Below, in pieces: positions 20,040 through 25,222 of a stretch of 64,000 bases of DNA; the stretch's first letter is position 1, and each line of letters opens with the position of its first letter. Source of the stretch: Escherichia coli (GTDB lineage Bacteria > Pseudomonadota > Gammaproteobacteria > Enterobacterales > Enterobacteriaceae); assembly GCF_003334305.1 (NCBI RefSeq), contig NZ_QOWS01000007.1. One strand, 5' to 3'. A program made the position numbers and the translations under genes. The notes below the pieces were generated by a model that saw nothing but the letters and a program-made list of their open reading frames with translations, was not told where the DNA came from and did no database searches.

Positions 20040-20244
20040 AACGACCTTCTTTTTTGGTTGTAAAAACCTTATTCTTTATATGAGTGTTGTTATTACCCGA
20101 CTTACAGGGGAATCGGCAATGTTCATGTGCCCAGAATAAGTAACTATTTCGCTATAAACTGTGGCAGATCAAATAATCCCATCACTGACTAAATTGTGTT
20201 TCAGCGAACTGGAACATTAATGATTTTTTGTGGAGAAGACGCGT

Positions 20245-21945
20245 GTGATTGTTAAACGACCCGTCTCGGCCAGTCTGGCCCGGGCCTTTTTTTACATTGT
20301 GCTGCTGTCGATTCTTTCCACGGGTATCGCTCTGCTAACTCTGGCGAGCAGTTTGCGCGACGCTGAGGCTATCAATATTGCCGGATCGCTGCGTATGCAG
20401 AGTTACCGCCTGGGCTACGACTTGCAAAGTGGCAGTCCACAACTCAATGCACATCGCCAGTTGTTTCAGCAGGCACTGCATTCACCGGTATTAACCAATC
20501 TCAACGTCTGGTATGTGCCAGAAGCAGTAAAAACTCGCTATGCGCATCTGAATGCCAACTGGCTGGAGATGAATAATCGGCTCAGCAAGGGCGATTTGCC
20601 GTGGTATCAGGCCAATATTAATAATTATGTTAATCAGATAGACCTGTTCGTGCTGGCTTTACAGCACTACGCTGAACGCAAAATGCTGCTGGTGGTGGCG
20701 ATTTCCCTGGCTGGCGGTATCGGTATTTTCACGCTGGTCTTTTTTACTTTGCGCCGCATACGCCATCAGGTGGTTGCCCCGCTGAATCAGCTGGTTACCG
20801 CCAGTCAGCGTATTGAACACGGACAGTTCGACTCGCCGCCGCTGGATACCAGTCTGCCGAATGAGCTTGGTCTGCTTGCAAAAACCTTTAACCAGATGTC
20901 GAGCGAGCTGCATAAATTGTACCTTTCGCTGGAGGCGTCAGTAGAAGAAAAGACCCGCGATCTCCACGAGGCCAAGCGTCGTCTGGAGGTGTTGTATCAA
21001 TGTTCCCAGGCGCTGAACACCAGCCAGATTGATGTGCATTGTTTCCGCCATATTTTGCAGATTGTTCGCGACAATGAAGCGGCTGAATATCTGGAGTTAA
21101 ATGTCGGTGAAAACTGGCGGATTAGCGAAGGGCAACCAAACCCGGAATTGCCGATGCAGATTTTACCGGTGACAATGCAAGAGACGGTTTACGGCGAACT
21201 GCACTGGCAAAATAGTCACGTTTCATCATCAGAACCGCTGCTTAACAGCGTTTCGTCGATGCTGGGACGCGGTTTGTACTTTAATCAGGCGCAGAAGCAT
21301 TTTCAGCAGTTATTGTTGATGGAAGAACGTGCAACCATCGCCCGCGAATTGCACGACTCGCTGGCTCAGGTACTTTCTTACTTACGTATCCAGTTGACGT
21401 TACTGAAGCGTTCGATACCGGAAGATAACGCCACCGCACAAAGTATCATGGCCGATTTTTCCCAGGCGTTGAATGATGCTTATCGGCAGTTACGCGAGCT
21501 GTTGACTACTTTCCGCCTGACGCTGCAGCAGGCGGATCTCCCCTCCGCGTTGAGGGAAATGCTGGATACGTTACAAAATCAAACCAGCGCCAAACTGACC
21601 CTCGACTGCCGTCTGCCAACCCTGGCGCTGGATGCGCAAATGCAGGTGCATTTGTTGCAAATTATTCGCGAAGCGGTGCTGAATGCGATGAAGCACGCCA
21701 ACGCCAGCGAAATCGCCGTCAGTTGCGTCACCGCGCCGGACGGCAATCACACGGTTTATATCCGTGATAACGGGATTGGCATCGGTGAACCGAAAGAGCC
21801 CGAAGGTCATTATGGTCTGAATATCATGCGCGAACGCGCGGAACGGCTGGGTGGGACGCTGACTTTTTCACAACCTTCCGGCGGCGGCACGTTAGTGAGT
21901 ATTAGCTTTCGCTCCGCGGAGGGTGAGGAAAGTCAGCTGATGTAA
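20245..21945 (+). CDS. narQ: Nitrate/nitrite sensor histidine kinase NarQ
   Basis: Track ORF begins at GTG 20230; start chosen at in-frame GTG 20245 (MIVKRPVS, 566 aa), matching the recalled NarQ N-terminus. Confidence 0.88.
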   Translation: MIVKRPVSASLARAFFYIVLLSILSTGIALLTLASSLRDAEAINIAGSLRMQSYRLGYDLQSGSPQLNAHRQLFQQALHSPVLTNLNVWYVPEAVKTRYAHLNANWLEMNNRLSKGDLPWYQANINNYVNQIDLFVLALQHYAERKMLLVVAISLAGGIGIFTLVFFTLRRIRHQVVAPLNQLVTASQRIEHGQFDSPPLDTSLPNELGLLAKTFNQMSSELHKLYLSLEASVEEKTRDLHEAKRRLEVLYQCSQALNTSQIDVHCFRHILQIVRDNEAAEYLELNVGENWRISEGQPNPELPMQILPVTMQETVYGELHWQNSHVSSSEPLLNSVSSMLGRGLYFNQAQKHFQQLLLMEERATIARELHDSLAQVLSYLRIQLTLLKRSIPEDNATAQSIMADFSQALNDAYRQLRELLTTFRLTLQQADLPSALREMLDTLQNQTSAKLTLDCRLPTLALDAQMQVHLLQIIREAVLNAMKHANASEIAVSCVTAPDGNHTVYIRDNGIGIGEPKEPEGHYGLNIMRERAERLGGTLTFSQPSGGGTLVSISFRSAEGEESQLM

Positions 21946-22020
21946 TGCCTCCTACTGACCAAAGAATACTTGCACTTAAGGTTCAGTATAAAAGGGCATG
22001 ATAATTTACATTAACTCCTT

Positions 22021-22038
22021 TTTTTCTCCACGATTGGC
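22021..22038 (+). promoter_or_regulatory. BaeR-box-like site upstream of acrD
   Basis: tttttctccacgattggc matches the published BaeR consensus TTTTTCTCCATDATTGGC, about 70 bp upstream of the acrD start. Confidence 0.5.
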
Positions 22039-22108
22039 TCGTACCTTGCCGCTACAGTGAAGCAAGTCAAGCCTACAACGATACGCAGAAACACGAGGTC
22101 CTCTTTTA

Positions 22109-25100
22109 ATGGCGAATTTCTTTATTGATCGCCCCATTTTTGCCTGGGTGCTGGCAATCCTGTTGTGTCTGACAGGTACCCTGGCGATTTTCTCATTGCC
22201 CGTTGAACAATACCCCGATCTCGCGCCACCGAATGTGCGAGTGACCGCTAACTATCCCGGCGCATCGGCCCAGACGCTGGAAAACACCGTGACCCAGGTT
22301 ATCGAGCAAAATATGACCGGCCTCGATAATCTCATGTATATGTCATCTCAGAGCAGTGGCACCGGTCAGGCATCTGTCACTTTAAGTTTTAAAGCAGGCA
22401 CCGATCCGGACGAAGCCGTGCAGCAAGTACAAAACCAGCTGCAATCAGCCATGCGAAAGTTACCGCAGGCGGTGCAAAATCAGGGCGTGACGGTGCGTAA
22501 AACCGGCGATACCAATATTCTGACCATTGCTTTCGTCTCTACCGATGGTTCGATGGATAAACAGGATATTGCCGATTATGTTGCCAGTAATATTCAGGAC
22601 CCGTTAAGCCGCGTGAATGGCGTCGGGGATATCGATGCCTATGGTTCGCAATATTCCATGCGTATCTGGCTGGACCCGGCGAAACTCAACAGTTTCCAGA
22701 TGACGGCTAAAGATGTCACTGATGCCATTGAGTCACAGAACGCGCAGATTGCGGTTGGGCAACTTGGTGGTACACCTTCCGTCGATAAGCAGGCGCTCAA
22801 CGCCACCATTAACGCCCAGTCACTGCTGCAAACACCAGAACAGTTCCGCGATATCACCTTGCGGGTGAATCAAGACGGCTCAGAGGTAAGGCTGGGCGAT
22901 GTCGCCACCGTCGAAATGGGGGCGGAGAAATACGATTATCTTAGCCGCTTCAATGGTAAGCCAGCCTCCGGGCTGGGGGTAAAACTGGCCTCCGGCGCAA
23001 ACGAAATGGCGACAGCGGAGCTGGTGCTCAATCGTCTCGACGAGCTGGCGCAGTACTTCCCGCACGGACTGGAATACAAGGTGGCGTATGAAACCACCTC
23101 GTTTGTTAAAGCCTCCATTGAAGACGTGGTGAAAACGCTGCTGGAAGCTATCGCTCTGGTTTTCCTCGTTATGTATCTGTTCCTGCAAAACTTCCGCGCC
23201 ACGCTGATACCCACTATCGCCGTGCCGGTGGTGTTGATGGGAACCTTCTCCGTACTTTACGCCTTTGGTTACAGCGTCAACACCTTAACCATGTTCGCGA
23301 TGGTGCTGGCGATCGGTCTGCTGGTGGATGACGCCATCGTGGTGGTGGAAAACGTCGAACGTATTATGAGTGAGGAAGGACTCACTCCTCGCGAAGCCAC
23401 ACGTAAATCGATGGGGCAGATCCAGGGGGCACTGGTCGGGATTGCGATGGTTCTTTCGGCGGTATTTGTACCAATGGCCTTCTTCGGCGGCACCACCGGT
23501 GCCATCTATCGCCAGTTCTCTATTACCATTGTTGCGGCGATGGTGCTGTCAGTACTGGTAGCGATGATCCTCACTCCGGCTCTGTGTGCCACACTACTTA
23601 AGCCACTGAAAAAAGGTGAGCATCACGGGCAAAAAGGCTTTTTTGCCTGGTTTAACCAGATGTTTAACCGCAACGCCGAACGCTACGAAAAAGGGGTGGC
23701 GAAAATTCTCCACCGTAGCCTGCGCTGGATTGTGATTTATGTCCTGCTGCTTGGCGGCATGGTGTTCCTGTTCCTGCGTTTGCCGACGTCGTTCTTACCG
23801 CTGGAAGACCGTGGCATGTTTACTACCTCGGTACAATTGCCCAGCGGTTCAACCCAACAACAGACCCTGAAAGTCGTTGAGCAAATCGAGAAATATTACT
23901 TCACCCATGAAAAAGACAACATCATGTCGGTGTTTGCCACTGTTGGTTCTGGCCCCGGGGGTAACGGGCAAAACGTGGCGCGAATGTTTATCCGCCTGAA
24001 AGACTGGAGCGAACGCGACAGTAAGACCGGCACCTCGTTTGCCATTATCGAGCGTGCAACAAAGGCGTTTAACAAGATTAAAGAAGCTCGCGTTATCGCC
24101 AGCAGCCCGCCAGCAATTAGCGGTCTTGGTAGTTCTGCGGGTTTTGATATGGAGTTGCAGGACCACGCTGGAGCAGGTCACGATGCGCTGATGGCAGCAC
24201 GTAACCAGTTGCTGGCGCTGGCGGCGGAAAACCCGGAGCTAACCCGTGTGCGCCATAACGGCCTCGACGACAGTCCGCAGTTGCAGATTGATATCGACCA
24301 GCGTAAAGCTCAGGCGCTGGGCGTTGATATCGACGATATTAACGACACACTGCAAACCGCCTGGGGTTCGAGCTATGTTAATGACTTTATGGATCGCGGT
24401 CGCGTGAAGAAAGTCTATGTGCAGGCAGCTGCGCCGTATCGCATGCTGCCAGATGACATTAATCTCTGGTATGTCCGAAATAAAGATGGCGGCATGGTGC
24501 CCTTCTCTGCTTTCGCGACCTCACGCTGGGAGACAGGCTCGCCGCGTCTGGAACGCTATAACGGTTATTCTGCGGTTGAGATTGTTGGGGAAGCCGCACC
24601 GGGGGTCAGTACCGGTACGGCGATGGATATTATGGAATCGTTAGTGAAGCAGTTGCCAAACGGCTTTGGTCTGGAGTGGACGGCGATGTCGTATCAGGAG
24701 CGGCTTTCCGGCGCGCAGGCTCCGGCGCTGTACGCCATTTCCTTGCTGGTAGTATTCCTGTGTCTGGCGGCATTGTATGAAAGCTGGTCGGTACCGTTCT
24801 CGGTAATGCTGGTCGTGCCGCTGGGGGTTATCGGCGCGCTGCTGGCAACCTGGATGCGCGGGCTGGAAAACGACGTTTACTTCCAGGTGGGCCTGTTAAC
24901 GGTCATTGGTTTATCGGCGAAAAACGCCATCCTGATCGTCGAGTTTGCTAACGAGATGAACCAAAAAGGCCACGACCTGTTTGAAGCGACGCTCCACGCC
25001 TGCCGTCAGCGTTTACGCCCGATTCTGATGACCTCGCTGGCATTTATCTTCGGCGTATTGCCAATGGCAACCAGCACGGGTGCCGGTTCCGGTGGTCAGC

Positions 25101-25222
25101 ATGCGGTGGGTACTGGCGTAATGGGCGGGATGATTTCAGCTACTATTCTGGCTATTTACTTCGTGCCGCTGTTCTTTGTGCTGGTGCGCCGCCGCTTCCC
25201 GCTGAAGCCGCGCCCGGAATAA
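22109..25222 (+). CDS. acrD: RND-family aminoglycoside/multidrug efflux pump AcrD
   Basis: 1037-aa ORF with 12-TM RND architecture, recognised AcrD. Confidence 0.95.

Follow-up and report, generated by a model that had tools for sequence, protein, structure and literature searches.

BaeR controls a small regulon that, according to the literature, includes acrD, the gene of an RND pump exporting aminoglycosides and some beta-lactams. Four BaeR binding sites have been reported, acrD among them (PMC2731931), and a passage of PMC10052836, citing Hirakawa 2005, states that acrD is regulated directly by phosphorylated BaeR. In Erwinia, BaeR shifts a fragment upstream of acrD (EMSA) and raises acrD expression 3.8-fold (PMC3915751). 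In E. coli and Enterobacter, alterations of baeS increase acrD together with mdtABC, and temocillin resistance rests on BaeSR-driven acrD overexpression (PMC10904727). The sequence that is recognised has been described as an 18-mer consensus, TTTTTCTCCATDATTGGC, which PMC3915751 and PMC3799227 credit to Nishino et al. 2005, and as a half-site, TCTNCANAA, by Yamamoto et al. 2008 (quoted in PMC3799227).

The acrD box and the published consensus

The window (i.e. the whole 64-kb stretch of DNA analysed here) belongs to the E. coli chromosome: of the 5426 complete E. coli genomes, 5425 match a 701-nt query spanning the site, with narQ and acrD annotated. A string search of the window places the 18-mer, tttttctccacgattggc, at 22021-22038 (+), which is 88 to 71 nt 5' of the acrD ATG and within the 163-nt gap between narQ and acrD (Table 1). 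The surrounding 60 nt (22003-22062) are identical in 5335 of the 5426 complete genomes. For narQ, the CDS in RefSeq counts 1701 nt and starts 15 nt later than the open reading frame given in the table.

Table 1. Features of the narQ-acrD region, with the information content of alignment columns among 57 acrD orthologues
Feature	Position	Strand	Information content	Remarks
narQ ORF, 5' neighbour	20230..21945	+		from first in-frame GTG; same strand as acrD
Literature-listed CpxR site of acrD, GTATAAAAGGGCATG	21986..22000	+		Table S1 of PMC9600279; present in window
Flanks	before 21996, after 22060		0-0.3 bit	
Conserved block TAATTTACATTA	22002..22013	+		TTTACA in 56/57 orthologues
TTTACA	22005-22010		1.6-1.9 bits	
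Upstream half-site ACTCCTTTTTT	22014..22024	+		CTCC 11 bp before core CTCC
(T)CTCCT	22014-22019		1.3-1.9 bits	
Reported BaeR box TTTTTCTCCACGATTGGC	22021..22038	+		17/18 to TTTTTCTCCATDATTGGC; sole window match
TTTCTCCACGwTT	22023-22035		1.7-2.0 bits	A/T-degenerate 22033: 0.7
Downstream half-site TCTCCACGATT	22025..22035	+		conserved box core; at -35 position of inferred promoter
GGC	22036-22038		0.1-0.5 bit	
TACAGT, inferred -10 hexamer	22053..22058	+		17 nt from core; predicted start ~22064-22066
TAnAGT	22053-22058		1.5-2.0 bits	n: 0.6
acrD CDS, regulated gene	22109..25222	+		1037 aa; ORF list, annotated homologues

The earlier note on this DNA had claimed a match to the BaeR consensus at all defined positions upstream of acrD. 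The box is indeed there, but the match extends to 17 of the 18 positions, as the site carries C at 22031 where the consensus (position 11) has T. No other site in the 64 kb comes within three mismatches of TTTTTCTCCATDATTGGC; for such sites, shuffled sequences give an expectation of 0.16 per window, falling to 0.01 at one mismatch or fewer, and the 17/18 match is well beyond chance.

Nevertheless, this match is partly circular. The published consensus follows exactly, by majority rule, from the K-12 boxes of mdtA (TTTTTCTCCCTTATTGGC) and spy (TTTTTCTCCATAATTGGC), both taken from MG1655, and of acrD, so that the acrD site appears to be one of the sequences behind the consensus, and agreement with it is, alone, no evidence. 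What should count as evidence instead is that 15 of the 18 positions (TTTTTCTCC...ATTGGC) are common to the boxes of three unlinked promoters (acrD, mdtABCD-baeSR and spy), all of them upstream of envelope-stress genes. Although ycaC is cited as the fourth BaeR site (PMC2731931), the best match to the 18-mer in its upstream region (the MG1655 ycaC-ycaD intergenic region, 2059-2371 of the extracted locus L085) has seven mismatches, which means that ycaC was no contributor to the consensus. Whatever its nature, the BaeR target at ycaC differs from the 18-mer box.

Conservation and anatomy of the site

For the comparison between species, GTDB species genomes were scanned with the first 400 aa of AcrD, which yielded 80 loci: 57 orthologues (L004-L060; 75-100% identity) from Enterobacterales such as Escherichia, Erwinia, Serratia, Yersinia, Pectobacterium and Hafnia, and 23 AcrB-like paralogues (L061-L083; 62-65% identity), which served as controls. 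A 13-nt core, TTTCTCCACGWTT, was searched for with at most two mismatches and up to 450 nt 5' of the ATG. It was present in 56 of the 57 orthologues (Budvicia being the exception) and in none of the 23 paralogues, the best of which reached three mismatches. The column values in Table 1 come from an ungapped alignment of the 57 orthologues anchored on this core. Judged against both the controls and the flanks, the site is under purifying selection in acrD-bearing species, except for its 3' GGC, whose conservation is confined to close relatives. The C at 22031 that counts as a mismatch to the consensus is in fact the conserved acrD state (54/57 orthologues).

The conserved unit extends a further 19 nt in the 5' direction beyond the reported box, and contains a direct repeat, (T)CTCC-N6-TCTCCACGWTT, with a period of 11 bp (22014-22035). 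Its CTCC elements, at 22015 and 22026, lie exactly 11 bp apart and both copies are conserved in the orthologues, dividing the site into two 11-nt units, ACTCC-TTTTTT and TCTCC-ACGATT. In each, a specific 5' part gives way to an A/T-rich tail, as is usual for tandem sites of the OmpR/PhoB family, and the spacing found here agrees with the 10-11 bp between the two direct repeats of such operators. The site would thus work like an OmpR/PhoB-type tandem operator. In the downstream half-site, the successive positions are kept in 56 (T), 56 (C), 57 (T), 54 (C), 57 (C), 57 (A), 54 (C), 57 (G), 53 (W), 57 (T) and 55 (T) of the 57 orthologues, and upstream, at offset -11, the CTYC element is conserved (C 55, T 56, C 45 or T 12, C 56). 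At 22014, where 54 of the 57 orthologues have T (TCTCC), E. coli has A (ACTCC; 5335/5426 genomes), a lineage-specific change that might weaken BaeR binding to the upstream half-site.

The published 18-mer therefore takes in the downstream half-site, three non-conserved bases and, of the upstream half-site, no more than the T-tract. It is mis-framed with respect to the conserved unit, since the upstream CTCC repeat and CACG are conserved, whereas the 3' GGC is not. This is relevant to scans of other genomes for BaeR sites, of which the 18-mer alignment for E. amylovora is an example. The Erwinia acrD orthologues (L031, L034 and L040) have an exact core, TTTCTCCACGATT, at about -155 from the ATG, and the 18-mer given for E. 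amylovora in PMC3915751, TTCTTCACGATTACTGGC, was apparently aligned a few bases off this core, because the non-conserved GGC served as anchor.

Downstream of the repeat, every orthologue has the hexamer TAnAGT exactly 17 nt 3' of the core (T 57, A 56, n, A 53, G 52 and T 56 of 57), while the sequence of the spacer and the length of the leader vary. A fixed gap of 17 nt filled with non-conserved sequence is how the spacing between a -35 position and a -10 element would be expected to behave. Likewise, the internal spacing of the module is constant among the orthologues, but its position relative to the ATG varies between -80 and -349, as would be expected of a promoter module. From this we infer that TAnAGT is a -10 element, with transcription starting near 22065. 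If TACAGT occupies -12 to -7, the repeats would extend from about -51 to -30 (centre near -40.5) and the TTTACA block from -58 to -53. A scan of 21800-22250 gave no sigma-70 -35/-10 pair, which is as expected if the promoter depends on an activator. The fixed spacing to a conserved TAnAGT and the lack of a -35 match would fit the pattern of class II activation, and a putative class II (-35-overlapping) geometry, with the start at the predicted position, is plausible at acrD.

The TTTACA block is out of phase with the repeat, its distance to the next half-site being 9 bp instead of 11, and TAATTTACATTA fits none of the consensuses tried (CpxR, EvgA, usable -35). Read as a -35, TTTACA would have to pair with one of the hexamers 16-18 nt downstream (CACGAT, ACGATT or CGATTG), which by eye are poor -10s, and worse in species with CACGTT. 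The block is also missing from the mdtA and spy promoters.

A start site of acrD near the box was not found in the start-site datasets that could be reached (Kim 2012, and Cappable-seq supplements without matching coordinates). The only start assigned to acrD by Kim et al. 2012 has 3 reads and lies 624 nt 5' of the ATG, inside narQ (U00096.2 2584993); in the window, it corresponds to about 21485 (+). In the scan of 21800-22250, no terminator-like site was found between narQ and the box. Basal acrD transcripts may thus come from read-through.

BaeR and the rival readings of the site

The earlier note took the box to be consistent with the reported induction of acrD by BaeSR, and this reading is supported by the literature, where the site is listed, and by its conservation in the orthologues as opposed to the controls. 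It lies at -88 to -71, upstream of a gene whose BaeSR dependence is known from the literature. Very probably, therefore, the site is the already published operator of the acrD promoter to which phosphorylated BaeR (BaeR-P) binds. By analogy with the OmpR/PhoB family, envelope stress (indole, Cu, Zn, tungstate and others) would lead BaeS to phosphorylate BaeR, and BaeR-P would bind head-to-tail as a dimer at 22014-22035, with one winged-helix domain per half-site. The tandem would then sit over the -35 position, in place of the missing -35 hexamer, and could recruit RNA polymerase to a promoter that is presumably nearly silent on its own. CpxR, for which a site is listed at 21986-22000, reportedly enhances the activation by BaeR.

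The main rival explanation accepts the conserved element as genuine, but holds that in vivo it is bound by CpxR, another OmpR-family regulator or RNA polymerase, while BaeR acts indirectly. It stems mainly from BaeR ChIP-exo of MG1655 under ethanol stress, in which only acrD gave no peak, unlike mdtA and spy. The gene also falls outside the BaeR iModulon, and the ChIP-exo authors concluded that its regulation is indirect. However, this dataset, the only genome-wide one found for BaeR, is limited to a single condition (ethanol), and the negative result may reflect a weaker site, given the A at 22014 and an upstream half-site that is poor by TCTNCANAA. Regulation of acrD has been reported for CpxR and EvgA as well. 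For CpxR, whose listed site GTATAAAAGGGCATG is a poor match to the CpxR consensus and only weakly conserved among the orthologues (0.0-1.1 bits), the effect on acrD is strictly BaeR-dependent (PMC2731931), and nothing in the acrD intergenic region matches GTAAA-N5-GTAAA with two mismatches or fewer. The best EvgA box in that region has five mismatches. The acrD-specific TTTACA block adjoining the repeat, to which no factor is assigned, leaves some room for another protein. Nonetheless, the same 13-15 nt recur in two other BaeR-regulated promoters, the literature lists the site as that of BaeR, and the Erwinia EMSA favours BaeR too. All in all, binding by something other than BaeR seems improbable.

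The ChIP-exo result could also be accommodated by a composite promoter of three parts, a proposal that we put forward with considerable doubt. Here, the TAATTTACA block (22002-22013) would dock a second regulator or the alpha subunit of RNA polymerase, unlike at mdtA and spy, and the T-to-A change at 22014 would weaken the upstream half-site. Together these could explain how ChIP-exo came to miss BaeR occupancy at acrD and why E. coli in particular needs help from CpxR.

Chance resemblance without function, in an intergenic region that is T-rich like the pattern itself, could be suspected because the consensus was partly built from the acrD site. It is, however, hardly credible at an expectation of 0.01 per window, and it is effectively refuted by the conservation profile, in which a core near-invariant in 56/57 orthologues stands between unconserved flanks and is lacking in the paralogue controls.

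That the 3' end of the box would belong to a sigma-54 promoter, TGGCTCGTACCTTGCC at 22035-22050, which resembles TGGCACG-N4-TTGCW (two mismatches to the 16-mer, with correctly spaced GG and GC elements), can practically be dismissed, as such matches are no more frequent in the window than by chance (13 found versus 17.5 expected), the GG lacks conservation (26/57 and 17/57 orthologues have G at the two positions) and the searchable supplementary tables of a sigma-54 ChIP-seq study (PMC4591121) contain no match for acrD. The same study does report a sigma-54 site within narQ, in antisense orientation (U00096.2 2584411), which, computed from the acrD offset, lies at about 20903 (-) in the window.

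Comparison with other BaeR boxes and related operators

As the BaeR box of acrD was already known, the site is no new member of anything. What is added is modest, namely the re-framed conserved unit, a TTTACA block specific to acrD and the constant distance to TAnAGT.

Compared with the two other boxes that make up the consensus, the acrD site shares with both a TAnnnT hexamer, 15-17 nt after the core. It differs in the CACG that is conserved among its orthologues, where spy has CATA and mdtA CCTT, and in the distance to a second CTCC upstream, which is 11 bp in acrD, 10 bp in mdtA and 22 bp in spy. The spy promoter (782-745 of the extracted locus L002, minus strand) reproduces the acrD geometry (22023-22058), in that a TTTCTCC...ATT core is followed after 17 nt by TACA(C/G)T, in this case TACACT. 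This suggests a BaeR-dependent start about 110 nt 5' of the spy ATG; a literature search found no start site for spy. In mdtA, the arrangement is different, with TATCAT at 15 nt as the best -10 candidate and a repeat spacing of 10 bp.

Measured against the half-site of Yamamoto et al. 2008, the downstream half-site of acrD (TCTCCACGA) fits at six of the seven defined positions, with the CTNCA element in common, whereas the upstream half-site (ACTCCTTTT) fits at only three of seven (hand count). An exact TCTNCANAA is not found in the acrD intergenic region, the best match being TCTCCACGA with one mismatch, nor is the direct repeat that Yamamoto et al. 2008 describe. In the window as a whole, TCTNCANAA occurs at chance frequency (9 versus 6.6).

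DzrR, also a response regulator of this type, offers a similar layout: it footprints on TTCTCCATCATATCTCCATATT, and among its homologues the best characterised is AdeR, at 52% identity (PMC10052836). The DzrR box (of desAB in Dickeya/Burkholderia) contains two CTCCAT repeats 11 bp apart, the same period as in acrD, and likewise lies 5' of an RND efflux operon while being bound by a BaeR/AdeR-like regulator of the OmpR family. Relative to its CTCCA-type repeats, the upstream repeat of acrD has degenerated to CTCCT. The comparison has its limits, as DzrR is another regulator, from other organisms, and is reported to be active without phosphorylation. AdeR of Acinetobacter also recognises a direct repeat, which can be likened to that of acrD.

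In its promoter architecture, the acrD site would resemble the pho box of PhoB, where tandem 11-bp repeats, composed of a specific 7-mer and a 4-mer rich in A/T, take the place of the -35 element and make the promoter activator-dependent, even though the recognition sequences of the two are unrelated. The pho box lies at about -40 to -23. Provided that TAnAGT is indeed the -10 element, the BaeR repeat, at -51 to -30, would be located approximately one helical turn further upstream.
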